The notes under the pieces were generated by a model. That model did not search any database. It was given only the letters and a program-made list of their open reading frames with translations, and was not told where the DNA came from. A program made the position numbers and the translations under genes. This document shows, piece after piece, positions 12,928-63,120 of a stretch of 64,000 nucleotides of DNA; positions within the stretch are counted from its first letter, which is position 1, and every line of letters begins with the position of its first letter. Origin of the DNA: Minutocellus sp. GHC0000111 (Eukaryota); the NCBI GenBank assembly GCA_977018835.1, contig OZ361257.1:186001-250000 (forward strand). The letters are read 5' to 3'.

Positions 12928-13225
12928 TATACATACATGTATGTAGATCTATATATGTAGATCCTAGAGTCTACACACACATTAACCTCTTACTTGTGTG
13001 TAGATCTATATTCAAGCGAATTGAATTTGGTTCTAACTTTTCATTATGATACACATGTAGTAGATCTAGAGATCTAGAAAGATTTAGGAATTCCTATTTA
13101 AGATAGAGTCTAGATCTACCTAGCGGGACGACACCCACCACTACCACCAAATGTCCGGTCCCCACTCACCGCTCTTGATGATGCATACATGTAGAGAACT
13201 AGATAGATCTACGTGTATATAAATA

Positions 13226-17587: not shown

Positions 17588-18492
17588 TCTAGCTAGATGT
17601 TTATATTCACATGAGACGTACCTACAAGGTGTAAATAGGAACTTCTGTATGTACGGTATAAAAGCACGGACTACAAGAAGAATCACTTTTCTTCCAATGA
17701 TCAGAGCTTGCTTGCAATGAGTGAATTGTTTGGCGAGAACGATGGTATGTACGGGTCCCATCATTCGCAGGATGATAGTTGTACCATTGGAGAACACAAT
17801 CATATGCGGCGAATCGATGGGGACACCCGACGACGAGCATGATCATTTCTACCAAGAAGGCGGTGTCATCGTCGTCCAAATCTTGCAGCAGAGTACAACA
17901 ATTTATTTGGAGCCCTGGAATGAGTGAATTGTTTGGCGAGAACGATGGTATGTACGGGTCCCATCTTTCGCAGGATGATAGTTGTACCATTGGAGAACAC
18001 AATCACATGCGGCGAATCGATGGGGACACCCGACGACGAGCATGATAATTTCTGCAAGAAGGAGGTGTCATCGTCGTCCAAATCTTGCAGCAGAGTGCAA
18101 CAATTTACTTGGAGCCCTGGAATGAGTGAATTGTTTGGCGAGAACGATGGTATGTACGGGTCCCATCATTCGCAGGATGATAGTTGTACCATTGGAGAAC
18201 ACAATCACATGCGGCGAATCGATGGGGACACCCGACGACGAGCATGATAATTTCTGCCAAGAAGGCGGTGTCATCGTCGTCCAAATCTTGCAGCAGAGTA
18301 CAACAATTTATTTGGAGCCCTGGAATGAGAGAATTGTTTGGCGAGAACGATGGTATGTACGGGTCCCATCTTTTGCAGGATGATAGTTGTACCATTAGAG
18401 AACACAATCACATGCGGCGAATCGATGGGGACACCCGACGACGAGCATGATAATTTCTTCTTGGCAGTATCATCGTCGTCCAAATCTTGCAG
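17588..18492 (-). repeat. 203-bp tandem array (~3.8 units) plus tail, inside AP3D1
   Basis: Reverse complement of the unit and tail seen at 20-2117. Confidence 0.95.
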
Positions 18493-18684
18493 AGGAATAC
18501 GACGTTGGGATGCAGGCTTCATGGAAGTGAGCACGAGAGTACCACAGCTGCTTTTTAGCAATGATTATGTTCGTGGCTTTAAGCCTCTTAAGACAATTGC
18601 GCATCCGCACACCGATAGCCTTCGGAGAATTGCCAGAGCGGCGCTGGCAGCAGGAGAACAGACAATTGCACCGTTCGAGGCAGC

Positions 18685-26000: not shown

Positions 26001-26822
26001 ACCAACAACGTAAGGGAAAAAGGTAGAATAGATCAGAGACACAGTGGTGCAGCCCCCGACCAAAGCGATTGCGATGGGAAGGAAGGACAGTCGAGAGTAC
26101 CTGAGATAAAACATAGAAGAAATTTTTGTAATTTTTTGGAAGGCCGTTCCGGGGGGGAGAAGGACACAGATCAGTGAAAAGTTCTTGCTTGAGCAAGGAA
26201 TTGAATCTCCTCGAAAGACAACTCCAAAAGAGAGCATTTATCTATCAAATCAACTCACTTGATAGACACGCCGGCACCGATGCAAGCCAAGGCTGGCGAA
26301 AAAATGGCGAAAAAGAGAGACATCGATGACGCAAAGAACGATGCAACAAATGCTGACAACGAAATGCCGGCGCAAGCCCCAGGGAATAGTGTAGGAAGGA
26401 AGACACCAAGCGAAAGACCCACTAACGACCCTGTACAGCGCCACAATGGCTAGTTCGATGCCAACGACTGCAAATAGTGGCTCAAGGAAAGCGAAGACCA
26501 GCGCACCACTGACGACAGCAGTGCAAAGACCAGAGCATAGCCTCTCGTTGCTTGTTTCAATCATCATGCCATTGGAATGATTGGTCGCATTACAAAGTAG
26601 AATAAAAGAAAAAGTACATGGAATAAATTAAGGTTGGATTCTGAAAAACAGCGAGCAAATCAGAGCTCAACAGCTCTTTCATTTGACACCTCAAATTATT
26701 TTACATTTCACTCACCTTTTCACATCTGCGCAAAACCAGACTACGATGAGCGCTGATAAGACACGTAGCGAAGGTTCAACCCAGGACTCTGCCAACCCTT
26801 CCATGGTCTCGAAGGACACCAT
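20042..26822 (-). pseudogene. BGS: 1,3-beta-glucan synthase (GT48, callose/chrysolaminarin synthase), disrupted as assembled
   Basis: FKS1_dom1 region (FGFQDSSVRNQAEHL, WGEGANIRHMPEC, NYDDYNEFFW) and catalytic motifs GEGKPENQNHA, QTIDMNQ, RLHYGHPD, INLSEDIFAG, QVGKGRDVG and GGAKYRATGRGF. Intron at 25115-25238 plus two likely 5' introns. In-frame TGA at 24773-24775 (GVF*IVN) and 20711-20713 (NCI*YAL). Probable frameshift at ~26440. The start at 26822 is inferred. Confidence 0.9.
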
Positions 26823-34922: not shown

Positions 34923-36334
34923 GGTTCCTTTGAGCGAGACTGCTCGAGCGTTTGCTTCTTCAAACAATTAGTCAGTCCGCGAAAATGACATTGAGTGGAC
35001 AGAGAGTGTTGGGTTATGAGCCAGACAAATACGTCGCCGTTCCTACAGATGCGTAGGAACTGGCTACATACATGTACGCATGTACGTATCGGTAGACCGA
35101 CCGTCCGTCCCCCCCCCATCTTGCATGGAGAGACCGTGACCTCGAGTAAATCTAGATCTACATGTACTGGTCCCTACCTCACCCTCACTCAATCTTACCC
35201 TACAATGTTTCCAATTGCGATTTTGTTTTTTATGTTATCGATATTCGTTCTTACTGATGCAAGTGCGGCTAGATCTACCTAGATCTAGTCTAGATCTGTC
35301 CAATTGGATTTGGTTCTTATAGAACCAATAATGTGTTAATAGGGCGTTTTCACGAGACCGCCGACAAAATCGGCGTGTAAATAGTAGCCACTAGAAAATA
35401 TTCCTACGTGCACATTTTCACGGTGATAAAAATGAAGCCACTAATTTGACCCAAGAATCTCGGACCCAAACACAGTGACTTGTTAGTAAAGTACCCCGAG
35501 ATCATTGTATCAAAGTAATTTTATTGTTGATTATGGTCTACAACATCCTTCTAAGCAGCAATCAGCAATAAAATTACTTTGATACAATGTTTACGAAACA
35601 TCGCGGAGGGGGTGTCTGCTCTCTCGTGAAATAACGATTTTCTACGTAGACGTTCTACATGTACATGTCGATCTGATGCGCATATGTATTTGGTGGTGGT
35701 GGTGGTGGTGTCGTCCCGCTAAGTAGATCTAGTAGAGTCTAGCTTAAATCTATTTGAATTAATGAGTAGCCGCACTTGCATCAGTATTGCTTAGGAGGTG
35801 GCGAAATATTAGGTCTCACCTAAGCAATTTCCAATTGCTTATAGGTGAGAACGGACTGTATAGATCTACACATGTAGATCTCTACACTGTAGACTTCACA
35901 TTCCGTCAATACATCCTTATCCTTATCCTTATCCTTAATGGGAACTTGAATTTGCACGATTGATGGCGGTCGCCGGCTAATGCTAACACGACTCGACTCC
36001 GTCCGGAACAGGTCCTAGTGCCTGCTTTTAGGGGTCTATTGAGCCGAACTCACTCCGCGCGCGACTCTATGATCACCACAGCCTTAATCCTTTTCACTTT
36101 CACTCGTACCAATCTTCGGGGGACTGCGTTTAAGACATTCCGTCAATACATGTATTGACGTCATGAGACTGGATGAAAGGGGAAAAAAGAGGTTCAATAG
36201 AATAGGCCAGGCTTTGGCATTGCGAAACCTTCGAAGGTAGGCTGCGGGCACGAAACCTTCGAAGGTAGCCGATAGATTCATCCTGTTCGCTCTACTGCTC
36301 GTGATTCTGGTTGGCACGTTTACGTCTACCGGTA

Positions 36335-40749: not shown

Positions 40750-41026
40750 AGAAAGACCCCGCGCAAAAGCAAAAAATTCAATTGAAAAGAATGTGCTAAG
40801 GAGGAAAAGTGTGTGTTTTTACTGTGCCGAATCGATTGGGGTGGAAAATAAAGGCCATAGCTTTTTTGCTGAATTATGCAACTCTAGATCTATGCTAGAT
40901 CTAGCTCGGTGATACATGTACTGCCCAGCTAGTCCTACATGAAAGTTTCTAGCTAGGCCTAGCTATGTAGGTTGCACCGAGCGAGCTAGATCTAGTACAT
41001 ACCGGTACACATACATGTACCAGCTA

Positions 41027-44000
41027 TCGACGACATTCTCAACGGGACAGCGGACATTGACAGCATTACCGATGATGATCTCATGAGCAAATGGCTGAAG
41101 AGTTTGCAGCACACCTCCAAATCCATCGGAGCTGCACCAATCTCCCTCGATATATCGATGGAAGATTATCGGCGAGTATATGGTTCCATCAAAGAGGAGA
41201 AAACCTCATCTCCATCCGGGCTACATTATGGCCATGTCAAAGCAATCCTCGATCAGGACGATATAGTTGACTTCCGATCACGTTTCGACGCTTACCCATT
41301 CAAAAACGGTTTCGCTCCCGAGTATTGGTCGACATGGGTAGATTGCATGCTTGAGAAGATTGAAGGCAAGCCTTACCTCCATAAACTGCGGATCATTGTC
41401 ATCATCGAGAACGCATTCAACACGCCGCTCAAAATATACTGGAACGAACGATTGTTGCCCCAAGCACAACGTTTGGGTCTAGTAGGTTATGGGCAGCGCG
41501 GCGGTCTCCAGGGACAGCAAGCGACGGACTGCGTGCTTGGACAGACCCTTACTTGCAACATAATGCGGGAGCTGCGACTTAACGGCGTACTACTCAATGT
41601 GGATGCGAGCGGTTGCTTCGATAGAGAAATACCACGATTGAACTCTATCTTATGCAGAAGGGCTGGCCTCCCTCGATCGGCGTGTTCAACTAACTGTCGG
41701 GCGCTCGATCAAGCACGGCACTATGTCAAGACGGCAAATGGCGTGTCCGAAGACAGCTACGGAAATGAGAAGGAACAACGAACGTTCGGCGAAGGTCAAG
41801 GCAAGGGCAATGCAGGGTCTAATTGGACCCTCATCAGCTCCTCTGCTCTCAGCATACTGCGGGAGAATACCGTTGGGATGACATTGCCTTGCCCTCGATC
41901 ACAACGTATTATTACACGCCACGCGGACATGTTCGTCGATGACATGAACGGAGGCTGCACGTCGGAACATGCTGACGAAGACTTCGAGACCGAACTTGCC
42001 CTGGTCGAACGTGATGCCACTGAATTCGCACAAACATGGGAGCATCTGCTGTATGTGATGGGAGGAAGCCAGAATCTGATCAAAAGCTTCATGTGGGCAA
42101 TGTTTTGGAATCAGCTCAGCCGAGCGCCGAAATTGATGAAGAAGAGCGAATGTGAGGTCAGCGTTGTCGTTACCCACAGCGAGACAGGGGAGCGGCAAGA
42201 GCTTGATACCAAGGATCCCGACGACGCCGAGCGAAATATCGGCATTCGAACAAATCCGGAGACGACATGGGAAGCAGAATACCAATTCCGTCGGGAGCAA
42301 TCTATCAATCTTGCCGGGAAAGTGGAAACATCCACGCTGACTCTAGAGCAAGCCCATCACCTCCTCGAATCAATTTGGCAGAGCAAGATGACGTATCCTT
42401 TTCCCGTAACATTCCTCTCTGAAATGAAGTTGGCTGCTATCCAAATTCCCTTCATGAAAGCCATCGTCCCCAAACTCGGGTATAACCGCAACATGGCTAC
42501 GGAGATTCGATACGGACCTGGTCGGTATGGTGGATGTTCTATTGCCTGGCTGTTCACCGAACAGGGAATCGCCGCCATCAAACAATTCATCGGTCATGTG
42601 AGAGCAGAAGATGAGCTAGGTGACCTCATGCTGATCTTGCTGGACCACCTCCAACTGCGCGCAGGGACGAGCTGGCCAATCTTGTCGAATTGCTCTGTCG
42701 AGATACCTCACCTTCACAAGCTATCCAAAGAACCATACGACTGGATCCTGGCTATTCGTTCCTTTTTACACACGTGCGACGGCTCAATGGAAGTGGCAGA
42801 TGCATGGGTCCCCCCCCTCCAACGCGAGGGCGATGTTCACATCATGGATGTACTCAACGACGGAACGGCAACGGCGGCAGAACTTTCGTTGGCAAATGAA
42901 TTTCGAATGCACAAAAGGGTTGTAACTCTTGCAGACATAGTCGATGTCAGTGGGAAATCCATAATGCCAGAGGGCCTTGATGATTCAATTTCCCCGAGTT
43001 CCCTCCGGTTCGGGAAACAAGCTCCCCCCTCAGATAGGGCAGGACAAACATGGCGACGTCTAATCCGGCGCAGGTTCGCATCCGGCATCCCTCCGCACAC
43101 AAGACACAGCCATGGATTTCTTCTCGATATCGCCTTGGGCCCATGGTCCCAAGACAGCCCACGTCACTTGCCGTATGCATGGTCATTCTGCCCAAAGACT
43201 GACGTCCTATATCGAGCATCCTACGACGAACAACAGCAGCTGCAATATCGCTTGTACCGCCCCCAGGTGTACCGAACGGAGAAATACTATCGTACCGACG
43301 AGGTAACCGATGCGATCAATCCTCGTTTCGTCCCCGTGGAGACGATTGACTTTCTCGAATATGTGAGGATCCGCGGCGGTGCACCGATCAACAAGCAAAT
43401 GGCCATAATCCCGCCAGCTACTTTTGAAGAACATGTTCATAGGCTACCTGAGCACTTACAACGAATAATTGGCAGAGTTTCATACAGCGAAGACGAACTG
43501 GAGGAAATGGCAAACAGGATCGTCACTGGCAACATCATTTTCGTCAGCGACGGCTCGATGGCAGGAGGCAAAGGTACATCAGCATACAAGATGGTAGATC
43601 CAAACGATCCTGAATTATACATTTTGGGCACGTCACCTTGTGATTCTCATCCCTCGTGTATCCAATCGTTTCGGGCGGAACTCAATGGCATCCTTGGCGA
43701 GATCGTTCTTAGCGGCGAGATTCTCCGCTTCCTCGGCGAAACCCATCCTACCGCGACAATCACCACATACTGCGACAATGTGTCTGCGCTTGGCAAGCTC
43801 GAGGAGACCGATGACAAGCCCGGCATCCGAAGTAGGCTCGGACCGGATTATGACCTCGTCAACGAGCTCAAAATGTCCCTCGCAAAATACGGTATCAATG
43901 TCAAACCAAAACATGTGAAGGGCCACCAAGACCGCGATAAGTCCTATGATGAGCTCCCCTTCGAAGCCCAAATGAATTGCGATTGCGACGAAGCCGCTGA

Positions 44001-45327
44001 CGATCACATGCAACACCCACCCAAAGGCCTCGCCCCGAGAGATTCCGCGCCATTCATCCCATCATCGAAGGTTGGACTCCGCCTTGGAGGCAGACTCATT
44101 ACAAGCAATATCGAACAGCACGTCCGTATGCAACGAGAAGGCATCAAACTTCAAAGGAGAATCATGTCAAAAGAAGGATGGACTCAACGCACATTCGACA
44201 AGGTCGATTGGGACGCACACGAGATCGCCTTCTGCAAGCTTGGACGCTCGAGATTCAAGACACGGGTGGTACAATTCGAGCATCGGTGGCTACCAATGGG
44301 AAAGCAACTCCACCGCATAGACTCCGAAATGTCCAACCTATGCCCAGTATGCAAGACGGCGGTAGAAGATCAAACCCATTTCCTCACATGTACCGACGAT
44401 CGTTGCCGCAGCAACTTCACCCTTCAACTCACGGTATTGCACAAGTCACTTCAGAAGAAGAAGATTCTTGGCGCGGTATGGTCTCAAATAAAGAGCCGCC
44501 TTCTGTTCGAGATGGGATACTCTACTCATTCACCAGCTTTCCCAGAGGCGGCATCTCACGACGCGATCGCGAGGAACATCAAATTAGCGGTGAGGGAACA
44601 AGATGAAATCGGCTGGGTCAACTTCCTCCGCGGCCGAACCTCACGATACTGGGGAAAAGCCCAAGGTCAATACTATCAAGAAGCAGATCTCGCCTCGAAC
44701 ATACTATCAACACAAACCTTCCAAACTGCCCTCATCAATAGCGCATGGCAATTCTTCCACGCCATCTGGGAGTACCGTAACGGCATCCTCCACGACGCCA
44801 ACATCAACATTAACATCGAAAAGATGGACAATCGCATCAGACAATTGTACCGAAGCCCCAGCGACTTCGTTCGACCCAGTAGCTTGTGCCTCTTCGAAGC
44901 CTTCTCCCTTGAGGACTGCATCAATCTACACCCATCTATCAAGCATACCTGGCTCAGGACGATCTTCCTTGCAATAAAAGCAAAGCACGGAGACTTGAAG
45001 TGCCTCGATGCTGACAATGCCCAAACAATCATCACAAATTTTTTCATTGAAATTCCCAATTTATATTTATTATCACAGGACGGACCTAAAAAGGTCACAA
45101 CACACAAGGTCAAACCTACACTGGTTAGACACACAGCATGGTCATTATTCATAGCTGTTCCTCCCAAGCGGGGGTTTCCAGCTATTTAACCTTGGAGGAC
45201 AAACCTTCAATGGTCTGCTCCTGCCGCAATCGGTGGGGCGTTGCCTTAGTGCATCCTTCACTCTTAGAGTGATCGCCGCTAGCACCGGGGATGTAGACTA
45301 ACGCAATAAAAAATACTACTTACGCAG
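41027..45327 (+). mobile_element. 5'-truncated non-LTR retrotransposon (RT + RNase H + zinc finger; resembles diatom Ambal-type LINEs)
   Basis: Flanked by TACATGTACCAGCTA (41012-41026) and TATATGTACCAGCTA (45328-45342), a 14/15 TSD. AATAAAAAA lies near the 3' end. The reading frame is already open at the 5' junction. Confidence 0.88.
41083..45189 (+). CDS. Reverse transcriptase-RNase H polyprotein (N-terminally truncated, otherwise uninterrupted)
   Basis: RT motifs SSPSGLHYGH, KLRII, DASGCFDR, GEGQG and MFVDD. RNase H motifs VSDGS, SFRAEL, YCDN and HVKGHQD. Zinc finger CPVC...HFLTC. Confidence 0.9.
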   Translation: MSKWLKSLQHTSKSIGAAPISLDISMEDYRRVYGSIKEEKTSSPSGLHYGHVKAILDQDDIVDFRSRFDAYPFKNGFAPEYWSTWVDCMLEKIEGKPYLHKLRIIVIIENAFNTPLKIYWNERLLPQAQRLGLVGYGQRGGLQGQQATDCVLGQTLTCNIMRELRLNGVLLNVDASGCFDREIPRLNSILCRRAGLPRSACSTNCRALDQARHYVKTANGVSEDSYGNEKEQRTFGEGQGKGNAGSNWTLISSSALSILRENTVGMTLPCPRSQRIITRHADMFVDDMNGGCTSEHADEDFETELALVERDATEFAQTWEHLLYVMGGSQNLIKSFMWAMFWNQLSRAPKLMKKSECEVSVVVTHSETGERQELDTKDPDDAERNIGIRTNPETTWEAEYQFRREQSINLAGKVETSTLTLEQAHHLLESIWQSKMTYPFPVTFLSEMKLAAIQIPFMKAIVPKLGYNRNMATEIRYGPGRYGGCSIAWLFTEQGIAAIKQFIGHVRAEDELGDLMLILLDHLQLRAGTSWPILSNCSVEIPHLHKLSKEPYDWILAIRSFLHTCDGSMEVADAWVPPLQREGDVHIMDVLNDGTATAAELSLANEFRMHKRVVTLADIVDVSGKSIMPEGLDDSISPSSLRFGKQAPPSDRAGQTWRRLIRRRFASGIPPHTRHSHGFLLDIALGPWSQDSPRHLPYAWSFCPKTDVLYRASYDEQQQLQYRLYRPQVYRTEKYYRTDEVTDAINPRFVPVETIDFLEYVRIRGGAPINKQMAIIPPATFEEHVHRLPEHLQRIIGRVSYSEDELEEMANRIVTGNIIFVSDGSMAGGKGTSAYKMVDPNDPELYILGTSPCDSHPSCIQSFRAELNGILGEIVLSGEILRFLGETHPTATITTYCDNVSALGKLEETDDKPGIRSRLGPDYDLVNELKMSLAKYGINVKPKHVKGHQDRDKSYDELPFEAQMNCDCDEAADDHMQHPPKGLAPRDSAPFIPSSKVGLRLGGRLITSNIEQHVRMQREGIKLQRRIMSKEGWTQRTFDKVDWDAHEIAFCKLGRSRFKTRVVQFEHRWLPMGKQLHRIDSEMSNLCPVCKTAVEDQTHFLTCTDDRCRSNFTLQLTVLHKSLQKKKILGAVWSQIKSRLLFEMGYSTHSPAFPEAASHDAIARNIKLAVREQDEIGWVNFLRGRTSRYWGKAQGQYYQEADLASNILSTQTFQTALINSAWQFFHAIWEYRNGILHDANININIEKMDNRIRQLYRSPSDFVRPSSLCLFEAFSLEDCINLHPSIKHTWLRTIFLAIKAKHGDLKCLDADNAQTIITNFFIEIPNLYLLSQDGPKKVTTHKVKPTLVRHTAWSLFIAVPPKRGFPAI

Positions 45328-47504: not shown

Positions 47505-48330
47505 GATGTGGATATTCCCATGAGACGTACCTACACAAATTGTAAATAGGAACCTCTGTACGTAAGGGCACAAGCACAGACTACAAGAAGAATCACTTTT
47601 CTTCCAATGATCAGAGCTTGCGATGAGTGAATTGTTTGGCGAGAACGATGGCATGTACGGGTCCCATCTTTCGCAGGATGATAGTTGTACCATTGGAGAA
47701 GACAATCACATGCGGCGAATCGATGGGGACACCCGACGACGAGCATGATAATTTCTGCAAGAAGGCGGTGTCATCGTCGTCCAAATCTTGCAGAGTACGA
47801 CATTTATTTGGAGCCCTGGAATGAGTGGATTGTTTGGCGAGAACGATGGCATGTACGGGTCCCATCTTTCGCAGGATGATAGTTGCACCACTGGAGAACA
47901 CAATCACATGCGGCGAATCGATGGGGACACCCGACGACGAGCATGATCATTTCTACCAAGAAGGCGGTGTCATCGTCGTCCAAATCTTGCAGCAGAGTAC
48001 AACAATTTATTTGGAGCCCTGGAATGAGTGAATTGTTTGGCGAGAACGATGGTATGTACGGGTCCCATCTTTCGCAGGATGATAGTTTTACCATTGGAGA
48101 ACACAATCACATGCGGCGAATTGATTAAGGGACGCCACGACGAGCATGATAATTTTGGCAAGAAGGCGGTGTCGTTCGTCGTCCAAATCTTGCAGCAGAG
48201 TACGACATTTATTTGGAGCCCTGGAATGAGGGAATTGTTTGGCGAGAACGATGGTATGTACGGGTCCCATCTTTCGCAGGATGATAGTTGTACCATTGGA
48301 GAACACAATCACATGAGGCGAATCGATGAA
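47505..48330 (-). repeat. 203-bp tandem array (~3.5 units) plus tail
   Basis: Reverse complement of the unit and tail at 20-2117. Confidence 0.95.
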
Positions 48331-48654
48331 GGGATGCTGGGATGACATCATGCTCGTCGTTATATCGAATTATCATTTTGAAGAGATAGGAACAATAGGT
48401 TCTACTTATGGTTCGCCATTCTGATTTGTAGTGATTGTCTAGAGTGTTCTTAGCTTCGTTTTAGGCTGGCGATAGATCTACATAACATGTAATTGTCGAA
48501 AATACCGATAACAAGGAGATTCTCGTGATGTCCGAGTCGTCAGCTTTCATCAGCATTTGGCTCTCACTCAAAAACTTTTTAAAAAACGGTACCGAGCAAG
48601 CTCGCAGCCCGGATCTTCTTGAATCTACAAGGTCGAAATGCAAAAAAGAAGGAA

Positions 48655-50323
48655 TCAACAATTGAACATTCTCTTGAACGCTTCGTAAAAACAGAAAAAC
48701 AACGAATTCGCAGGAACTTTGTGCATCAGCCGAGGGAAACTCCCTCTAAGAAATGCTGCAGAGCCGCCCTCAATGTATGTCTCCCTGGCACAATTAAAAT
48801 GCTCCCTTCGTACAATTCTGGCTGTGTTTGTAACCTCTTTTGACATTTTGTAATGAAAAAGTGGGAACAAAGCAGAGAAGGTAGGTGTAGATTCAGAAGG
48901 ATTAAGTGAATCCGAAGTTCACATTTGTATGTATGCATCGCCGATATCCGCTATTGTAAGTGCAATTCCTGCAAAAATACACACAAACCCACTTACCGTC
49001 TTGACTAAAGGTGACGAGGGGGGGGGTTCATTTTGAAAGATTTTGTAGGAAAGGTTGGTAGCGAATGAGCAAAGGAGCACTTTTAGTTGGAAACAAAAAT
49101 TGGCAAAACTTTCGCTCTGGAATAAAGTACATTTGCAGAAAGGAAGAAAAACTCACCTACGTCCATTGGATTTGTGAGGAAAGAGCCGACCCCACCAGCA
49201 ATTGCTCCGGAAGCCATGTCTTTCCAGCCCTGATGCTGGAGCTGCGATTTCTCAGTCCATTTTTCTTGAATAGCTTCATATGTGAGTAGTGTCATGATTG
49301 CATCTACAAGAAAATTCGTGCACGCATGTGGGTGGTGGGTCGAAGCGCATTTCATGAGAACACAAAAAATAAACAAAGATAAGGAAAGTCTAGTCATGGC
49401 AACTTACAAGGAATATCTCGAACCATTTGGATGGAAACACCGCCCAGTGGGAAAAATGCCCGCATTCCCTTTGATCGAAACATTGCTGTAAGAGCTTTTC
49501 TCGTGTTTGGGTATTGTCCTGTCTGCAGTTGTTGCTTGACAACTTCATAGGGTACCCGAGAAAATGAGGCAAACGTATTTCCGATTGCTGCAGACGCAGC
49601 TATTCCAATTCTCCTCGCAGCATTGTCAGACATAACGAAGCTCTTCCCCCGTGTTGGTCCAACTGCTTGCCTCAAGCGTGGAGTAATGATCCGTTTGCTG
49701 TAAGAGTATATTCCAAAGTACAATCCCACACTGGGCATTGCGCCGATGGCCGCAACGCCAAGGCCAGCCTTATGAAAGTGTGTGCGCATGAGAAAAAATA
49801 ATAACAAAAAATTCATGATTGAGCATTTGGAAGAGATAGTTTTGAACAAGTGAAACTCAAGGATATGCAAGAAGCCATTGCTGGCTCTTGAAATGGGAAT
49901 CGTCAGACGTCGACACTTACATAAAGTTCAAATATTCCTTTTGGTCTACTTACAACCAACGCAGCGGCGTCGACAAAGCTTAGTCCCTTGCCCCCCATCC
50001 CCTGTCGAGCCTGTTGCTGCACTGTCTTGATTGTGTCGAAAGGTGCCAAAATTGTCTTTGAACATGCCGCAGCTAAGCCCGACGCTAAGCTATTCCTAAA
50101 ACCTTCTGAGGCGGCAGACGCCAAAGAGTTTTTTTGGACGACCTCCTCCGCGACATGCATCTGGCAACAACAACAATGATTGCTGCTGCCTTCGGACCGC
50201 AGGACGTGCTGGAATATCTGCTGCTGTTGTTGATGGTGGTTGAATTTGCAGTGTTTTGCAAGCAGACACTCGCATCGCCTGGAGCAGCCATAACAGAAAA
50301 ACTATTTCGAGGCATTCAATCAT
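48655..50323 (-). pseudogene. Mitochondrial carrier family (SLC25, SAM-carrier-like) protein, multi-exon, frameshifted as assembled
   Basis: Three carrier signatures: PFDTIKT, PYEVVKQ and PMDVVKTRLQ (the last built with an 8-nt exon at 48997-49004). C-terminal PRLMHKVPANSLFFCFYE. Frameshift at ~48795 and probably another in exon 1. Confidence 0.8.
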
Positions 50324-50409
50324 GGCGACCAATTGGCAATAACAGGAATCTCCTCTAACATAGCACGAGCGACGGTGGATGCCGCTTGGATGAGTGCCTG
50401 GTCGGCAAC

Positions 50410-50480
50410 TGTACCGGTACTACGTAGTAACTTGGCTGCTACGTAGCTAGCTACGTAGCTACGTAGTAGTAGAGTAGAAG
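50410..50480. repeat. TA-palindrome array upstream of the carrier gene
   Basis: TACCGGTACTACGTAGTA...CTACGTAGCTAGCTACGTAGCTACGTAGTAGTAG. Confidence 0.85.
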
Positions 50481-50545
50481 CAGCAGCAGCCGCAGGAACA
50501 GCACAAAAATGCGACGGGCGATGGAAAGACGTTTGTAGACTTCTA

Positions 50546-53500
50546 CTAGCTCATGGCGCAGGAGAAAAACAGAGGAAAACCGGGTGTTTTGGTCGAGTGC
50601 GAAAAAGCTCCTCTGACGAACGTCTCTCATTCGCAACAACTCCAAAAGAATTTGCCGCCATAAAATCAACATCAGCTCTTTGATAAGAATCGTCTCGAGC
50701 GAGTATTTTTTAATATTACTGCTGCACCAAAATCCACGTATTGCAACAATAGACCGAGCGCATCATAACAGAGAAAAAACTGCCGAAGAAATCGCCGCAG
50801 CATATCTTTTGATCTCGCCAAACATTGATGACACCCTCGTTGGGCACTTTCATCGTCCTATTGCTCTTATTGACATCCTTCACAAGCACTGGCGCTTCCC
50901 GAACTCTCTCCGTTTCTAGCACTTTCATCCTTGACTTGAACGAAAAAACAGCAAAAGAAAGAAGCTCGCTCGTTGGGGAGAAAAGGAGGAACGAGAACCC
51001 CACCGACTGGTGGGTGTCACCGTCGGTCGTAATTGTGCGCGGATTTGCGCTACCGACACTTGCATTCATGCCCAGACCTCCGTACACCGAGCAAGGTTCC
51101 TGTCGATGGAATCAATATCATTACGGCGGGAACAATGAAGATATGTGTATAGCCTGCAAACTCCATTCAGCAATGGGCGATACGACGCTCAGAACGAAGG
51201 TGAAGGATGGAACAGAAAAAATTATTTGTGTCTGCATGTGTATGCGTCATGATATGCCAGAGGATCAGTGGGAGGAACAGCACAGCATGCGAATTGAATA
51301 TGCCAATCAAGAAGAGGAAGAGCAAAAGAATTCACGATCCGATCGGGCGGTGGCGAAGCGCTACGTCCCCGGCGAATCTGAGACGGCAGCGGCCGATTCT
51401 ATCACAGAGGTTCGCAATTGGACGACGAGGCATTTGCGAAGTGCCAATTCCGAGATGACCGATCGAGCAGCCATCGCCCATCTTGCAAGGAAGGGTGGTC
51501 ACAACGGTGCTATCAACATCAGTAGAGGTGGAACCTCTCGTCGGTCTCGACAGAAGATGGCGGATACGGCAAGTGCAGCTTTTGCAGGGCTCAGTAAGGC
51601 TGTATCGCCGACCGACCCTGAATTTGGAATGGCGGTTGCTATTGCTGGCAATGTCGTTCGAAAGGGTACAGTGAAGAGATCGTTGGAAAGTACAGTGGTC
51701 GATTCCGAGAAGAGGGTTCGGCCAACTGCGCAGCACCGAGAAGAAATGGCAAATGCAACTGCTACAAAGGAGGTTGCTTTGCGCATAGCTGCAGATGCAG
51801 CGAAGCTTGCGAAGAATCAGAAGCAGAAGCAGAAGGACGATGCTCTGCTGCTGGAGATGGGACCGGTCCTCCGTGACCACGTAAAGAAGATAAGGAAGCC
51901 CAGCCTCCGGAGGCATTTTATTGCTGCTTTCTGCAAAAAGTACAGCCAATCATGCATTGAGAGGGTGGTGGGCATCAAGATACCTAGCGACGAGTGGAAT
52001 AACATCAGGAAACATCAGCGGAGCCCCGGCGCATTCAAAATTCTAACCAGATCGAAGCCAATAATAAGCAGAGCAAGGATCCCAGAGAGTATCATCAAGA
52101 AGTTGCTGTATTTATTGGAGCAGCCGATGAATCTGCAGAAGCATGCTTTTGGGTCGAAGCTACTTGCCATATGTGATGGCATGAAGTCGGTTGAACTCGC
52201 GGCAGTGGCACGAGCCAAGCCAATGCTGGACCTCGTCAAATCATTCATAATGGCACTAGATTCTGAAGCGGGCTGTAAGTGCACCGTCCCCGACGAAGAT
52301 CGTTGTACCAAGCTCGAGGACAACACTATGCGCCGATGCATGAAGACGGCTGGCCACGGCGGCAAGCATAAGTACACGACCAAGGGATCTATTTGTGCGC
52401 GAACGGTCGAGGATTTGGTTGGAACATTGACAACAGATGAGATTCGAAGGTTTACTGGACTTGACGATATCAAAATTTTGAAGGGGAACGATAATTTCAA
52501 ACGCATGAGGGAGTTGACGGAGAAACTGTTCTTTGCTCTTGACAACGAGACCCAGCTCGAGAAGGCCGAGATCCTGATGAATATCGACGAGGTCGAGCTC
52601 TTTCATTCGACAGACTTTTGTCCCCACCTCGACCGAAACGGTACCCACAAATGCAATTGTTTGACTTGTGGATTTGAGCAAGATGGATCTGATATTCATT
52701 GCGACCACAAGGAGGATCATCTCAACCCTTGTACGAATTGTGCTCTCGGCTATTCGATTGTTCGGCGCCTCGAGGCGAAGCTTGAAGCTGTGAAGGGGGC
52801 ACTATTTCCAACCGATAGGGATCGTTTTGAGTATGAGGAGGCCAAGGATCCCATCATCAACTGTAGAATTGACTTGGACGAATACCGAAGCCATTTGGCC
52901 CGTCTTTGGAGCGAAGCTGGAGAGGATGTGCCGGATTTGAATCATCTCTGGGAGGTCAATGGATGCATGGTGCGTTGTGACTACAAGATGAGAATACTGG
53001 CTTGCTACTTTCGGGAGAATCAGCTCAAGTGGTACGCAAAGCGCGGGATCACATGCCTTAGCTTTATGATTATATCTAAAGCTAAGGATGGCGATCCGGA
53101 TCGGCGCTTTGACTGCACTTATGTAATTTTTCTTACAAACGACACTCTGCAAGACGAATGGGAGGTATTGTGCGCAAAGAAGGAGGTCTATGAGAATCAT
53201 GTACCGCCCGATTGCAAGGTTGTTTGGTTTCGGACTGATGGAGCAGGCTGCTTTCGTAACGTCCTCGCCCGTGCAGCTCAAAGGATGTGGTCTAAATGGA
53301 CGGTCCGTGGAATTGTAGAGGAGAGGTATCGAATAGATCCTGCCGGCGGCGGCCACACTACTCTTGATGCTATGTTTGGCGTTCTTGCGAGAGTTTTGCA
53401 TAGAGGTGCTGACCGAGGCAACTCCTACGTGTTCGTAGATGAAGCAGTAGTTGCAGCCGAGTCTGGAGGAGGGATGGCAGCTACGACCTTTGCATCTTTC

Positions 53501-54512
53501 AATCCAGATCGAACCCGTCGTCTTTGGGCCAAGCTCACTGCTCCCAACAAGTCTCTTGACAGCGTCCTTCTTACCGTTCTGAACAAAGAGAATGGATCTA
53601 TTGTCGGCTACAAGCACTCTGGATACGGGCAGGGAGTGCAGTACAAGGCATCCAACTTCTCTTGGTACAACAAGCAGCCGATAATGACGGGTAGGAATAA
53701 AACCAACCCCATCGATGTCGAATCGGCCCAGCCTCCACGATGCCTCGACCTCAAGTATGGATCCGACGAGAAGAAAGCAATCAAAAGCTACGCCGAAACC
53801 GAAGGACAAGGGCCTCAATCCGCCAATAACATTCGCAAGCGCATGATACCAGCAGATCTCGTCGTTCCCAACCATCCTGATAACGCCGATGCCGCTGCAG
53901 ATCCTGAACAGCAAGGCATCGATCTGCATGAGGATCCAATGAATGAATCTGATGGAGAAGCATCCGACAACGAAGATTGAAAATTGTTTGGCTGGATGAA
54001 TGCACACATCTTGTGTAGCTATACATAGTTAGAGCATCTTAGAGTAAGACATGTGCTTTAGTACGATATCTACTTTGTAGATCTACACGTCTGGCTACAT
54101 AGTCTTGTGTGTGTTCCTTGTTTTATCGGTCTAATAGTTGGCATCAGCCAATTCATTGTCGACGAGGACCAGCAGTCCCTTGCTTTCTCGCGTTAAGATA
54201 TTTTTTTTAAAGCTCGCAAGAAAGCAACACTTCTGCGTGCATTTCTTTGCGAGGTCAAAAATGTTTTAAAAACTATTTTTGGCAAAATCCAAAGTAGAGA
54301 TCGAGCGGAAGATACCGAAAACATGATGTGCAGTTTTCGACGCAGAATTCAAAAGTGTACCAATCTTTGCCTCGAGGAAGGGGACACATCAGCTTGTATC
54401 GAGCGATGAAGTTTGGTGCAGTTTTGAATCCTCGTGCCGACGCAGGGCTACTTTGACGGGCGTGCTGTTTTGACCGGAAAATGCTCTGTTTTTCTCGTGC
54501 GTCATCAGCTAG
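50546..54512 (+). mobile_element. TIR DNA transposon, Sola3-like (tentative), ~3.97 kb
   Basis: Left end TACTAGCTCATGGCGCAGGAGAAAAACAGAG versus reverse complement of the right end TACTAGCTGATGACGCACGAGAAAAACAGAG (3 mismatches). The TSD is TA or CTAG, ambiguous because the junction is palindromic. Confidence 0.85.
50825..53980 (+). CDS. Putative DDD transposase (Sola3-like) with Cys/His-rich region; uninterrupted ORF
   Basis: CDYKMRILACYFRENQLKWYAKRGI, FRTDGAGCF and PAGGGHTTLDAMFG resemble the DWAMK..YRESQ..WFGKRG / SDNAGCY / GKG..D pattern I associate with Sola3. It lies between TIRs. The true start may be MPRPPY at ~51068. Confidence 0.65.
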   Translation: MMTPSLGTFIVLLLLLTSFTSTGASRTLSVSSTFILDLNEKTAKERSSLVGEKRRNENPTDWWVSPSVVIVRGFALPTLAFMPRPPYTEQGSCRWNQYHYGGNNEDMCIACKLHSAMGDTTLRTKVKDGTEKIICVCMCMRHDMPEDQWEEQHSMRIEYANQEEEEQKNSRSDRAVAKRYVPGESETAAADSITEVRNWTTRHLRSANSEMTDRAAIAHLARKGGHNGAINISRGGTSRRSRQKMADTASAAFAGLSKAVSPTDPEFGMAVAIAGNVVRKGTVKRSLESTVVDSEKRVRPTAQHREEMANATATKEVALRIAADAAKLAKNQKQKQKDDALLLEMGPVLRDHVKKIRKPSLRRHFIAAFCKKYSQSCIERVVGIKIPSDEWNNIRKHQRSPGAFKILTRSKPIISRARIPESIIKKLLYLLEQPMNLQKHAFGSKLLAICDGMKSVELAAVARAKPMLDLVKSFIMALDSEAGCKCTVPDEDRCTKLEDNTMRRCMKTAGHGGKHKYTTKGSICARTVEDLVGTLTTDEIRRFTGLDDIKILKGNDNFKRMRELTEKLFFALDNETQLEKAEILMNIDEVELFHSTDFCPHLDRNGTHKCNCLTCGFEQDGSDIHCDHKEDHLNPCTNCALGYSIVRRLEAKLEAVKGALFPTDRDRFEYEEAKDPIINCRIDLDEYRSHLARLWSEAGEDVPDLNHLWEVNGCMVRCDYKMRILACYFRENQLKWYAKRGITCLSFMIISKAKDGDPDRRFDCTYVIFLTNDTLQDEWEVLCAKKEVYENHVPPDCKVVWFRTDGAGCFRNVLARAAQRMWSKWTVRGIVEERYRIDPAGGGHTTLDAMFGVLARVLHRGADRGNSYVFVDEAVVAAESGGGMAATTFASFNPDRTRRLWAKLTAPNKSLDSVLLTVLNKENGSIVGYKHSGYGQGVQYKASNFSWYNKQPIMTGRNKTNPIDVESAQPPRCLDLKYGSDEKKAIKSYAETEGQGPQSANNIRKRMIPADLVVPNHPDNADAAADPEQQGIDLHEDPMNESDGEASDNED

Positions 54513-54595
54513 TACGTACTGTACGACTTACCAGTAGAATTTTCTACATGTAGGCTAGGTCCTAGACTAGGTAGGCCTACATTGTAGTAGCTCAT
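54513..54595. repeat. TA-palindrome array upstream of SEC15
   Basis: TACGTACTGTACG...TACATGTAGGCTAGGTCCTAGACTAGGTAGGCCTACATTGTAGTAGCT. Confidence 0.75.
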
Positions 54596-54677
54596 GTCGG
54601 AATGAGGAACGTTTCAACATAGAAGTGATTTGACCATAATTGCTGGCCAGCTCTGCACCACGTATAGATTTCTGGCC

Positions 54678-57600
54678 ATGACGGCGCAGAGCAGCAATGA
54701 GAAAACGGTAAAAGCTCAGAGTCAGATCGAAAGAGCGCAGCGTCGAAGAGAGGATGCTGTGCGTCGTTTAGTGATCGATGTGACCAGATTGCCCTCCACG
54801 CACCCAGCGGCAAATGCTGCGAGTGACATTCTCAAGCCTAGTCTTGATGAAACCAGTAACTGCAATGGAACAATTCACCCACTCCTTGAAAACAGTAGGG
54901 CTGGCGATGTTCCAACTGCATCACAAGCGTCAGTTTCTGGAATCGGTGCATTTACCAAACTGCCAGAAGATTCTCTCTTGACGAGCGCCGTGGCCGTCTC
55001 AATTGAACGTGGTGTTGATCGTGAACTTCACAACGAGTTGGTCCGCCAGGCCAGGGAATCTGCTGGTGTAATATCAAAGATTTGTCACGACCACTCAGAT
55101 GCTTTCCTTGGGAGTGTCGGAAGAGTTGTAGCACTAGGTGGCCCCTGTGGCGAGCTTCGTGGGAAAATTGAGGAGGTACGTGCGGGAGGCGAGGATGAAG
55201 TCTTTAGCGACTTCATTTTCGTTCATGTCTGGACAAAAACTATACTTTTCACTGTTACTCATCTGCTACCTCAAAAATTGTCATCAATTCTACTAGGCGA
55301 ACAAGGAAATTCTTTCTAATACTGGCGGTGCTATGCTCGACTCAGCATCTCGTTTGGAGGCATCGAGAAACGCGGATGCAAGAGCACGAACAATGCACGG
55401 GATGGTCACCGCATGCCGCCGGGTTGCTGTCCTGTTAGAGAGAAGCCGACGTCAGGCAGCGTTGAGCAGGCCAAAAGCCAGTTTAGATGCGGTTGACGAG
55501 GCTCGGACATGCTTGACCGCTCCTATCAGTAGTCTACCTAGGTACTCTTTGTGCCAGGAGGTCTTGATAATTTGGTCAACGTAGCTGCATACAACACAAT
55601 CCTGGCCAGAGAGGCGGCGCGGAGTAGGGGCAGTTTCGGCAACACGGATAGTGCTCTCAACCATGGTTCTGGGCCAGACAGAATTGACGCCGCAAGCATT
55701 GGAGCGAAAGGCGAAGACGGAGGAAACAGGATTGGCGATGTTGGAGGTTTCATTGGCGGTCCTCATGGACCTTCTCCTTCAGAGCTTTGTCTCGAGGAGA
55801 CTCCGTTCGGGTCGCGGGCTATGGAAATGCTACCAAAAATAGAAAACGAAGTCCTTCTGGGTGCACGGAGAGGTCTGAATCGTTGGTTCCTCTCAATACG
55901 GTCAGGAGGGGATGGATCCAAGGCAGGAAGGGCTGCTCTCCGTAGGTGTGCTCATTCTATGGCAGTGGGCCCCGGCCTGTTGGGTTTGGGCGGTCGCATT
56001 CAAAGTTACAGCTGGAGAGCAAAAAACGCGGACAATCTCATTTCTCGGGCGGGGCAGGGAGGCAGGGTTGCAAGGGCAGCTCGTTACGGATATTTGTTCG
56101 AACGGGACTGTAAAAAAGAAGTAGAACGAATCGAAGGAAGAAGCGTTGTTGGTGTAGAACGTCGAGCCGAGGCGTTTGTGTCAGCCTTCGGTTGGTATCG
56201 CTGTTGGGATGAGAGTGTTGAACTTGATGTTGAAATTGATCTTTTCCTTGCCCGAGCTGGTGAAAACGACTCGGAGACACCAGGAGGAACAAGCCACGGC
56301 ACAAAGACTCTTGGATTTCGGGCGGGGGCTGCTGCAGGGCAAGCCAGCTCTAGGGATCTTCTTGGGCGTCAGTCGACACGGCTAACGTCATCCAGTTGGG
56401 GGAGTGTTCTGACCCCTTCAATTTTCTTTGAGGACTCTCCCACGAGGTAATGAAAAATCGTCTATTTGGCTAACGAAATGAGGTATTTGATGTTTTTGGT
56501 TTGGCACGCATTGTTTGCCGTTGCACTAACTTGGTTCCTTGCTTTACACTGTCTTTGCTTTTTGGGTCAGAGAGGAAGACGAAGAAAAACTTGTTTCTTT
56601 GCCTGAGGCGGTGCACCCAGTTCGCAGGGCAGAGGCCGCGTTTGCCTTATTGGGGAGGATTGACGAGTTTCGGTCGTATTATGAGCAAAATCGTTTCGGT
56701 GACATGAGAATTGGTTCAGCTGAGAGCAAGAGTGATGGCGAGGGTGATAAGAATGAAGTGAGGAGTTATCTTTCTTCTCTCACAGGAGATGATGTAAGTC
56801 TCGGCACTGACCGAATCTTCTTTGCGAAGAGCATGCCTCACCTATGTGCAAGTGTGGTTGGGTTCAGTGCTGTAGAGGCAGCGCTTGAGCTCGGGAATGT
56901 CAGTGACGAGCCAGATCAGGAGAACACGGACTCTTTCACCGCTAGGTCTCAGACTGAAGGTCCCAGTGGAGAAAAGGACTCGTCTGAGAATGAGCTTGTC
57001 AACCAACCCACCCCTCCTGCGAGCAGTGCCTCTGCATCGTTTCGCGAAGGCTCAGCTAGGTATGAGCGCTCCTTGATCAACGAACTTGGAATCATCCTAC
57101 GGAGCCGTGCAATTGGAGCGACATTGGCTGAGCTTGCCCGCAGCTCGGCATTGATGACCTCCTTCCGATCGGCTCTAAACGTTGTCCATCCTAGTTCAGC
57201 CACACGCCGCTCCGACAAGGAGTTGCTTGCCATGGATGTGGATATCATAATGACTGGCCTTAAGGTGGCACAAGAAGAGCAGCTGAAAGCCACCAACAAG
57301 ATGGTGTGTGATGACAAGAAAGAAGCCATGAGGGTCCCAAGTGGTCAAGAATTTCGAACTGCTGATCAACAGCCGTCCAGGGAGGAAGCCGAGGTAAAGA
57401 ACTATCCCTTCGGTCTTCACAAGTTGAAGCAGAAGCCATTGGTAGATGCTTCTCTGGAGATCGACCGAGGCAGTTTGCACTACATGCATGCTGCGCAGGA
57501 AGAGAGATTCACATTTTCAAGCTCTGTTCCATTTGTGGTTCGATCCATCCATGCTCGGACCATCACGTTCGCCTTCTTTGCAATGTGCCAGGAAGAGCTT

Positions 57601-58727
57601 GGGCAGGTATTTGCTTTCAAGAAGGGTGGTGGAATAGCAGGCTATGTCCTAGATTGTGTAGCAGTTGCGGCAGTAGGAATGAAGGAAGGATGCCAACACC
57701 TTGATGAGCTCACTGTTGAGCAAGCCGTTCAGATTATTGCCAACATCTCTGCCCCCTCCAGTCGACTTTACCCCGCCTCTTTGGAATTATCATGCGAGGT
57801 CTATGCCATGTTGGCATGGTCAGGGGTGATCATCTGGAAGACACGTTTCAATATGCTGACTCTACATTACGCGGAGCAGACAAATCGTGCGACCAGGAGA
57901 TTGGTGCCATGTACAGTCTGGTGTATGAGATTTGTCGAAACAAGATAGACATGCTTGTGAACTTTTCCTTGGAAAATTTTCAATGGGTGAGCAAATCAAC
58001 AAGAGACACGCCCAATGCCTATTGCGAGAGCTTGATAGAGTACATGAGAAACACATTCCGAAGTCTTGCTCCAATGGACGAGGGATCAAGAGCAGGCCTT
58101 CATTTCTCATGTTGTGGACACATAGCCGAGAGGCTAGTGAAGTTGCTAACTGAGAAAGCAAAGCCTTCAAAGGATGACGGTGAAAGTAGCCAGCATGGAC
58201 CTCCATCAAATGAGAAGGAGGAAGGAGGCCTACTTCCCATCAATAAAATTGATGCGTTTGGGCTGAAGAACTTGTCTGTTGATGTCGCTGAGTTCATGTC
58301 CTTTGCTGACGGAACAGGCATCCCGCAGCTTGGAGAGTGTTTCAACAAACTCAAATGTCTAGTTGACATTATGCTTGACCGTGATCTGCCCATGTTGCTT
58401 CTGCCTGACAATGAATCTGTCCGCCGGAGAAAGTACCCTTTTGCTACACTGGACAAAGTGCTCAGCATACTTGAGAAGTATTCTGGAATGGGATTAAGCG
58501 ATAAGTTGATGGGATCATCAGGGAAGAGCTTAAGCATGTAAGATGATCATGCTGTTTGTGTGTGTGTGTGTGTGCATTTGTGTTGCCTTGCCCTTTCTTT
58601 TATGTTTCCATCTCTGACTACATGGTTCAACACTTCTGTGTTTGTCACGACCTATCACTGTAGATTGATGCTGGAAAAAAAGGAGGTAGCACATTTGACT
58701 CGGCTTGTGCGACTACAGTTGGGTTGA
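54678..58727 (+). pseudogene. SEC15: Exocyst subunit Sec15/EXOC6, disrupted as assembled
   Basis: Motifs [54 protein letters not shown] and [14 protein letters not shown]. Introns at ~55176-55297, ~56447-56570 and ~58538-58663. Frameshift from an 8-nt insertion at 55537-55544 and a C-run frameshift at ~57752. Confidence 0.8.
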
Positions 58728-58965
58728 AGGGTTGGGAGAAGAAACTCCCAAGACAACATATGAGGGAAAATGCGGACATCCAGATTTTGACTGATCACTA
58801 AGGCCTAAGAAAATCACGACACAGAGGAGGTCAAGGCAGGATTCCGAAGATGGTTCAAATTTTACAAAAAAGGAGAAGCAGTAGTCTGCCTCGTGGTGGG
58901 AACAAGGGATCTGTTAAAAATGCACTTAATTACTAAAATCTTAATGCTCAACAATGATCTTCGAT

Positions 58966-59963
58966 GCATGTGATTGTGTTCTCCAATGGTACAACTATCA
59001 TCCTGCAGAAGATAAGACCCCAACATACCATCGGTCTCGCCAAACAATTCACTCATTGGACGACGATGACACCGCCTTTTTACCAAAGTTATCATTTTAC
59101 CAAAATTATCGTGCTCATCGTCGGGTGTCCCCATCGATTCGCCGCATGTGATTGTGATCTCCAATGGTACAACTATCATCCTGCAAAAGATGGGACCCGT
59201 ACATGCCATCGTTCTCGCCAAACAATTCCCTTATTCCAGGGCTCCAAAGAAATTGTCGTACTCTGCTGCAAGATTTGGACGACGATGACACCGCCTTCTT
59301 GCAGAAATTATCATGCTCGTCGTCGGGTGTCCCCATCGATTCACCGCATGTGATTGTGATCTCCAATGGTACAACTGTCATCCTGCGAAAGATGGGACCC
59401 GTACATACCATCGTTCTCGCCAAACAATTCTCTCATTCCAGGGCTCCAAATAAATTGTTGTACTCTGCTGCAAGATTTGGACGACGATGACACCGCCTTC
59501 TTGGCAGAAATTATCATGCTCATCGTCGGGTGTCCCCATCGATTCACCGCATGTGATTATTGTGATCTCCAATGGTACAACTATCATCCTGCGAAAGATG
59601 GGACCCGTACATGCCATCGTTCTCGCCAAACAATTCCCTCATTCCAGGGCTCCAAATAAATTGTTGTCCTCTGCTGCAAGATTTGGACGACGATGACACT
59701 GCCTTCTTGCAGAAATTATCATGCTCGTCGTCGGGTGTCCCCATCGATTCGCCGCATGTGATTGTGATCTCCAATGGTACAACTGTCATCCTGCGAAAGA
59801 TGGGACCCGTACATACCATCGTTCTCGCCAAACAATTCCCTCATTGCAAGCTCTGATCATTGGAAGAAAAGTGAAGTTTCTTTGTAGTCCGTGCTTGTAC
59901 TCTTACGTACAGAAGTTCCTATTTACATGTTTTAGGTACGTTTCTTGTGAACATACACATCTT
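58966..59963 (+). repeat. 203-bp tandem array (~4.5 units, first one deleted internally) plus tail
   Basis: Same unit and tail as 20-2117. Confidence 0.95.
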
Positions 59964-61810: not shown

Positions 61811-63120
61811 TAGAGATCTATTTATCCATGTAGATCTAGATCTAGAGATCTACAGGACTGTATTTTAGATCTAGAGTAAATGTCATGTTATCTAGTGTTG
61901 GGCAACTAAAGCGAATTGCAGAAGCCTCGCTTCTTGAGGAGGATGAAGCTCAGGTAATGGCTACAGTCCGTCCCCACCTATAAGCATATTTGATCCGGAC
62001 CCCAGCCCTCAACATGCTTACATGTACCCAGCCCTCAACATGCTTACATGTACCGTAGCGACTGCAATAATTTTAGCCAGGGGCTAAGCACATGCCTCTG
62101 TTGAATGATGACGTGGCAAATGCTGGACCAGCAAGGGCCGGAAAACGAACACCAGCACTACCACCAGCACTACCACCAGCACCAGCACCAGCACCAGCAC
62201 CAACGCAATATTCTACCGGCCTCACAGCCACAATTCGCATGTATGTAACTACGTGTAGCGACAATGCAAGAGCCTACAGTTAATTTCACCTACAAATCAC
62301 CCGCTCCTTCGGTCGGACGTCCTCAGGCAACTGAGCTTGGATGTTAGGCGGCGGTGTGCCGGACTTGGCGAAAGCAGGAACGGAACTCCAGTGTCCCGGC
62401 AACGGTCCGCAGTACGAGGGTACGATGACAGGGTACCACCACACATATTAGGCGAAGCTTCTTGGCTGGCGCGGAGGCCTTTGTGCGACCTCACATGTAG
62501 ATTGATTCCAAAAATAAGGTTAACCATAGAATACCTAGGTAGAACAAAATAGAATAGAATGTAGAACTACCGGTACAACGCGTTGTACATAGCCACTGAC
62601 CCTCGTCAGTTACGTCCCTTTACTTACATGTACCCTAATGTACGTCGCGGAGGGTGTTGGGTCTGCGGATTTACAGGCCTGGATGGTAGATCTAGAAGCT
62701 CGTGATGTTGAAAGGTGGGGAGCAAGGGTGGAGGATACGTTGGGCCTCGAACGAGGTTCTTCCAAGTCACTCTATCATGCGCAAAACAATTTTTGGTTGA
62801 TTATTTTATTGTAGGAGGGTATCGCATAAGAGTGTGTCGTCTAAAGTGAGCAGATCTTGGCGAGCTACTAGAGTACGTAGGATTTCGGCGATACATGTGA
62901 TCTCCGGGTTCCCAACTTCCTCAGCTACATGTACCCCCCTAAAAGCCACAGGGTTATATCGATCGAAAGACATACAGCCCGGAACTTCTAGATCTATCTA
63001 GAAGTGCATTGAAAGGTAGGCTAGCTTTCCCGAGGTCTGGTTGGCCTCTACCCCGATCTCAGCCTACCGGCAGAACGATTATTTTATTAGATCTATCGTT
63101 TCATGGGAGGTTAGAGTCTA

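Follow-up and report, generated by a model that had tools for sequence, protein, structure and literature searches.

The window analysed here is a 64,000-base stretch of diatom DNA that contains, at 54678–58730 of the plus strand, the diatom SEC15 (EXOC6) gene. The gene is composed of exon 1 (54678–55175, its start codon placed by alignment), exon 2 (55297–56446), exon 3 (56571–58538, containing the Sec15_C domain) and a last exon (58666–58730, placed from relative P0236); introns 55176–55296 and 56447–56570 are both spliced in X6, an RNA contig from another study. The assignment is based on a Pfam match to Sec15_C (PF04091) in the last piece and on 98 longer relatives. The best of these matches the second half of exon 2 at 72% identity and clusters with an Extubocellulus record.

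Exon 2 carries an eight-base insert. The window reads AGTC-TA-CCTAGG-TA-CTC at 55531–55547 (TACCTAGGTACT at 55535–55546), and the inserted CCTAGGTA (55537–55544) shifts the reading frame, leading to a stop at 55582–55584 and a product of 83 residues with the insert-encoded tail LPRYSLC. Specifically, removal of eight bases, with four equivalent starts at 55535–55538, fuses the frame 55297–55536 with the frame 55545–56446. The initial annotation had claimed that removing 55537–55544 rejoins the SEC15 frame, and alignment to full-length relatives confirms this: in the closest of them, residue 240/246 aligns to both SEC15 pieces with zero extra residues. Relatives read TAPISSLLFVPGG uninterrupted across the junction. 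Sec15 orthologs had been expected to do without the eight bases, and 32 of the 35 stored relatives matching the junction pattern indeed read ISSLLFV, counting cluster members that are not independent, while insert-type extra residues are found in none of the 35. All other statements of the initial annotation on the sequence itself are also correct. The putative footprint site TA-CCT-AGG-TA (55535–55544, no strand) is made up of a target TA, three bases of each element end and a duplicated TA. The insert also creates a donor-like AG/GTAC and an acceptor-like CTAG/G (55539–55545), a possible seed for intron gain.

Two more SEC15 lesions, missed by the initial annotation along with four broken neighbour genes, are present in the window. 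One is a 12-base in-frame deletion at 57652–57653 of the plus strand, between 9-base direct repeats, which is common to the X5 contig and absent from X6. The other is a second frameshift, +2 in a C run at 57752–57756 of the plus strand, which is present in X1 and X4 and absent from the X5 and X6 contigs. These comparisons were made over 48500–58900 with the assembled contigs of X1, X4, X5 and X6 (4 of 22 listed runs), X1 and X4 being from organism A.

The X1 and X4 contigs (2,589 bases, 54534–57122; depth 186 and 268) span the insert without a gap. The X6 contig, in contrast to the window, has −8 bases at 55535, +12 at 57652 and −2 at 57752 and is spliced at both large introns, so that its SEC15 frame is open throughout; the contig and the window are separated by 23 listed single-base differences in this gene. 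An empty TA allele exists, seen in the X6 contig and in the ISSLLFV of the relatives, and the insert is real, not an assembly slip. The earlier view that the lesion is unlikely to be a random sequencing indel is upheld by an insert present in the X1 and X4 contigs and exactly missing from X6.

The eight-base allele was not seen in X5, which has a −1 of its own at 55505. Two X5 contigs end at 55537 and restart at 55543, exactly where a fork that parts the empty allele from some insert at the same TA would have its bounds. The second allele there is not the eight-base form of the window: an X5 arm matching the window insert was not found, and the mean depth of the bin (9.94) equals that of those two contigs themselves (9.91–9.97). 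Near the SEC15 end, a 1-base deletion at 58493 is present in X1, X4 and a 3.03-Mb contig, and absent from the window, X5 and X6. The 3.03-Mb contig, from which the 83-residue shifted product is recorded in a protein collection, is distinct from the window, because its later SEC15 piece ends where the 58493 deletion would end it. Judged from these sequences, at least two dead versions of SEC15 exist. X1, X4 and the 3.03-Mb contig may share a common source with the window; X6 apparently does not. The runs that hold the gene include sponge metagenomes from two studies (X5; X8, X10, X12 and X13, with shares of 0.66–0.69), and shares of 0.66–0.70 among the runs other than the four compared hint at X6-like alleles. 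Exact look-ups of window ORFs found 1 of 10, where misses may reflect start choice or assembly differences.

At the other end of the window, a mariner element of 3,447 bases (2154–5600, minus strand) is flanked by TA on both sides and has 22-base inverted ends that start with CCT and match at 19 of 22 bases, the element starting CCTTA and ending AAAGG. Its transposase shows the D39D spacing of the last two catalytic Asp (D2–D3 spacing of 39) and is broken by a TGA at 3576–3578, which is Arg in other copies. The fold predicted for a transposase relative (P0121, ~40% identical) has Mos1 as its best match (E 2e-8), and the element is accordingly modelled with a mariner-type transposase fold; Pfam and PDB sequence searches with window pieces or a profile returned no transposase family. 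The related proteins, 89–100% identical to the window copy, fall into clusters of 275, 23, 4, 4, 1 and 1. The 40 family proteins listed come from contigs of 28 distinct sizes above 0.5 Mb, including the 3.03-Mb contig that records SEC15, and 6 of these 40 have all three catalytic Asp motifs in one frame. By these counts the family is high-copy.

A search for the terminus pattern found one stretch in metagenome contigs, a second terminus in the unrelated contig L001 that reads TA/CCT and equals the right end in the window at 21 of 22 bases; viral contigs gave 0 matches. This terminus and the spacing of 39 bear out the claims that CCT and AGG are the ends of the element at 2154–5600 and that it is of DD39D type. 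Both left-type termini (2140–2153 in the window, 2005–2012 in L001) lie in a TA at the edge of a cluster of palindromic words, as would be expected if elements re-insert into old scars.

Among the transposase copies, Tyr gives way to Cys or His in 174 of 387 cells at 20 sites, compared with 372 of 10,882 overall, a contrast inflated by the rule that calls Tyr ancestral; Thr>Ala, Ile>Val and Met>Val follow the Tyr changes. The count took window 2472–4388 with P0106, P0108, P0117, P0126, P0127, P0139 and P0396–P0429, all as proteins. The Tyr pattern points to a TpA-to-TpG/CpA mutation of repeat copies. Among the substitutions of the SEC15 region, the TpA class shows no enrichment (6 of 23 transitions, p 0.39) and the CpG class a weak one (10 of 23, p 0.035); this test used 30 rows and set aside those of the element, a single row specific to X4 and 4 rows not shown.

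The word at the SEC15 site belongs to a large class. Words of the form TA-palindrome-TA number 152 with 4-base cores against 7.8 expected from an order-2 background, and 16 against 2.3 with 6-base cores, whereas non-palindromic TA-bounded words are mildly enriched (172 versus 125 and 193 versus 128, respectively). TACCTAGGTA occurs three times (11907, 55535 and 62532) against 0.07 expected in 60 order-2 Markov simulations. The second copy (11907–11916, no strand) lies within a cluster of other palindromic words and the third (62532–62541, no strand) is isolated, with no empty allele known for either; the initial annotation had placed the same word near 11908 and 62533. Symmetric words made from the element ends are enriched (1+1, 44 versus 10.5; 2+2, 20 versus 0.47; 3+3, 3 versus 0.07), and asymmetric words from the same ends show no enrichment in the window.

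The SEC15 site demonstrates that a TA-palindrome word can be born as an insertion at a TA. This much of the link drawn in the initial annotation between transposon and palindromes stands; the link is direct, however, for 3 of 222 occurrences, and the commonest words, TAGATCTA (67), TACATGTA (42) and TAGCTA (38), do not match the ends of the element at 2154–5600. The words that do match are TACCTAGGTA (3) and possibly TACCGGTA (20) and TACGTA (44). Some palindromic words ride inside repeats. Only 2 of the 222 occurrences of the seven words fall inside host-gene spans (22,981 of 64,000 bases, 36%), and one of them is the SEC15 scar. A before/after pair for one such word offers a way to ask, across the genome, whether the words arose as excision scars or serve, as the rival view holds, as regulatory motifs. 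Among the publications listed for TACATGTA, two concern an oomycete promoter motif, judged from their listings.

Further elements and repeats are present. Just upstream of SEC15, a second TA-flanked element (50546–54512, plus strand) has CTAG ends and a 1055-aa ORF that resembles DUF7869 clusters, by a weak recognition (Atlas score 0.91–0.93). This element is polymorphic, an empty-site joint having a depth of 75 in X1 and 114 in X4. A MITE-like element at 12175–12930, with long inverted ends starting TATGTTAGTCCC, lies between TA runs. A repeat family with tandem units of 202–203 bases occurs on both strands (1–2060, 6929–7026, 17600–18500, 47540–48400 and 58950–59900), an exact 122-base tandem duplication occupies 11510–11753, and a 1397-codon open frame at 40996–45189 gave a faint match to zf-RVT and none to a Pfam family at 0.001.

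We consider it likely that the SEC15 insert is a footprint of the local CCT-ended mariner family. The ancestral allele, as in X6, has one TA, and the derived allele, as in the window, reads TA-CCT-AGG-TA; the insert duplicates the TA, is palindromic and equals the three terminal bases of each element end. For an eight-base insert, the chances are 1/16 of being TA-duplicating, 1/64 of being palindromic and 1/64 of matching a given end, figures that become less extreme if several families are allowed, at least two further TA-flanked families being present in the window. In the proposed mechanism, a mariner would have inserted at the exon 2 TA, duplicating it; on excision, one strand would have been cut 3 bases inside each element end; and end-joining would have kept both overhangs, yielding a symmetric 3+3 scar. 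Both events would have struck a gene copy on which selection had probably ceased to act by then. The insertion and excision postulated by the initial annotation are supported by the reality of the insert, the existence of an empty TA allele and the match to the element ends; no allele still carrying the element at this TA was seen among the contigs compared. Also against this reading, the common published footprints keep one end only, and one-end 3-base words are not enriched in the window (2 versus 3.4 expected).

One alternative, which we regard as unlikely, is that the insert derives from another CCT-ended, TA-targeting family, or from two one-sided scars (TA-CC-TA-GG-TA) left by an enzyme cutting 2 bases inside. 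The central TA of the insert would accord with the latter, and TACCGGTA, with 20 copies, far outnumbers TACCTAGGTA, with 3; such an excess of 2+2 over 3+3 words would fit a 2-base offset, which cannot itself leave 3+3. In addition, the comparison of ends is limited to 64 kb and one outside terminus. This alternative, however, requires two events or an unseen family, whereas a high-copy family with exactly these ends is already present; moreover, the one-sided words TACCTA/TAGGTA are only weakly enriched (30 versus 20.5).

Less probable again is a repair insertion made without a transposon, templated or untemplated, or a hairpin footprint of flank DNA, for which the end match would be a coincidence. 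The SEC15 copy does accumulate other indels, and TA palindromes of unknown origin are abundant in the genome, but the insert is neither an inverted nor a tandem copy of either flank, and CCTAGG, CTAGGTA and TACCTAG were not found in the 336 bases before it or the 356 bases after it. The joint occurrence of TA duplication, palindrome and end match is improbable on this account.

That the insert is spliced out, or forms part of a new small intron in a gene that still works, is very improbable. The scar does make AG/GTAC and CTAG/G, and 59 frame-restoring GT..AG pairs of up to 200 bases surround it, but each of the 59 would cost 6 or more residues from a block that 8 of 8 close relatives share unchanged and would leave the 57752 frameshift (+2) in place, and X6 splices an allele simply without the eight bases; we rejected splice rescue on these grounds. 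An assembly or sequencing error, a reading that draws on the other window lesions falling in homopolymers, has a negligible probability, given that the X1 and X4 contigs contain the eight bases at the depths stated above and that the 3.03-Mb contig, which differs from the window at 58493 although its source is possibly common to the window, X1 and X4, encodes the same shifted peptide.

The mariner footprint reading concerns one lesion among many. Five host genes in 7235–58730 (RPC2, AP-3 delta, glucan synthase, glutamate synthase and SEC15) appear, from their sequences, to be broken by stops, frameshifts or truncation. RPC2, the second subunit of Pol III (7235–11230, minus strand), has a TGA at 8947–8949, also found on the 3.03-Mb contig, and a −1 frameshift near 7500 that falls in a 14-residue motif. 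The match to AP-3 delta (16046–17530, plus strand) ends at residue 452 of 1203, and the TGA at 17369–17371, which is followed by repeats, is for this reason read as internal; a PDB search with the 50 residues that follow it gave no match. One copy of the 202–203-base repeat family sits where AP-3 delta is cut. The 1,3-beta-glucan synthase (20042–26630, minus strand) has TGAs at 24773–24775 and 20711–20713, which are Trp and Arg, respectively, in three relatives. The ferredoxin glutamate synthase (29464–34990, minus strand) has a +1 frameshift near 31418, at a point that in the solved enzyme lies between residues 955 and 956. In a mitochondrial-carrier gene, a 2-base homopolymer difference from X6 at 50128 was not counted as a lesion, because both the first carrier repeat and an in-frame ATG come after it.

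The comparison of lesions between runs covers SEC15 (48500–58900), and the homopolymer frameshifts could be assembly errors. Recoding of TGA as a sense codon was rejected, since TGA aligns to differing residues (Trp, Arg, Arg and Ile), which argues against a stop-codon reassignment. Because most of the lesions are not footprints, it is probable that the SEC15 scar arose as a passenger in DNA no longer under selection, and is not the event that killed the gene.

RPC2 is an essential gene. We lean towards the view that the window represents the dead homologue of a diploid region, in which an intact, expressed, X6-like homologue supplies RPC2 and SEC15. Two observations, made in both X1 and X4, speak for a live homologue: the lesser arm of a preserved 118-base fork bears the ancestral X5/X6 letters at 39% and 45%, and the joint lacking the upstream element (50546–54512) reaches 40–45% of flank depth. 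According to 10.1101/2024.07.30.605881, Logan contigs collapse to the major allele, and simple forks would therefore conceal a live allele present at about 45%. No empty allele is visible at the insert in the X1/X4 contigs, where its arm and the window would have no 31-base word in common. Nor did the 10 and 5 members of two clusters include an intact, nearly identical exon 2 or RPC2 carried by a long contig.

A competing account, to which we assign a real but clearly smaller chance, is that both homologues are dead, with the working genes in a diverged duplicate elsewhere or the genome eroding widely. In its favour, X1 and X4 show the X6-type letter fully at 2 and partly at 3 of the 23 listed places and cross the insert unbroken, and two assembled versions, the window and the 3.03-Mb contig, both have the insert and the RPC2 stop. 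A majority allele at 55–60%, however, would likewise win collapsed forks; no separate contigs of a second copy (at least 88%) cover exon 2, no second copy was found in any of the clusters read, and X6 splices an intact allele that is ~99% alike.

If one homologue is dead at such a scale, the region would be a case of natural haplotype decay in a diatom from sponge samples, and the reference assembly may display the dead copy of essential genes. Gene-breaking transposon footprints are already known, and the excision event alone would be ordinary; the probably dead region, with five broken genes at ~1% divergence from an expressed intact allele, is the larger lead. A broader synthesis is tentative and, taken whole, somewhat doubtful: in a sponge-associated diatom, a long stretch of one homologue, RPC2 included, would be dead while its partner is live and expressed; on the dead copy, selection would act neither on mariner insertion nor on symmetric end-joining; the exon scar would catch the origin of the intergenic TA-palindrome words; and a TpA-to-TpG/CpA mutator would erode the transposon copies and destroy TA targets.

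In functional haploidy, or haplotype decay, of clonal diploids, stops, frameshifts and transposons accumulate on one homologue and expression comes from the other. The proposed arrangement of a dead homologue beside an expressed one is reminiscent of such decay; here, however, five genes in 52 kb, including the essential RPC2, appear broken on one copy at ~1% divergence. A literature search, judged from its listings, returned no case of haplotype decay in a diatom, and searches for a diatom transposon footprint, with most subscription papers outside their scope, returned no report on the topic, judged by title and start of abstract.

The SEC15 site resembles the footprints of Tc1, Sleeping Beauty and Mos1 in having a duplicated TA with element-end bases between the two copies. 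In PMC2874221 and PMC4561436, Tc1/mariner footprints are described as a duplicated TA with end bases kept between the TAs, arising from staggered cuts and end-joining. The usual Tc1 product keeps one end, TACATA/TATGTA (PMC12632400), and the Sleeping Beauty footprint is 3 bases from one end (PMC2874221). Unlike these, the SEC15 site keeps both ends in full, and symmetric words dominate the window. The palindromic insert at a putative excision site is also like the hairpin footprints of hAT elements (Ac/Ds), which, according to PMC4561436, consist of flank DNA; a hAT-type hairpin origin was rejected on the grounds that there is no flank template near the SEC15 insert.

A close parallel is with plant DD39D elements, which leave 1–4 end bases from both sides between two TAs, as described in PMC9632168 and PMC1925063. 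PlantMar/Stowaway elements (Osmar5, Ppmar2, Triticeae Stowaway) have D39D, short inverted ends, a TA target and lengths of 2–6 kb, and re-insert beside old footprints (PMC9632168, PMC1925063 and PMC7325037). The element at 2154–5600 shares the D39D spacing, the 22-base inverted ends, the TA on both sides and a comparable length of 3,447 bases, and both termini of the window family lie in palindrome clusters, as in PlantMar re-insertion. In contrast, its host is a diatom, its ends start CCTT and it has a long extra region between D1 and D2, while PlantMar is reported, in PMC7325037, from flowering plants and a few oomycetes. We therefore classify the element as working like PlantMar and not as a member, because its host is outside that range. 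By analogy, the SEC15 lesion appears to work like a Stowaway/PlantMar footprint.
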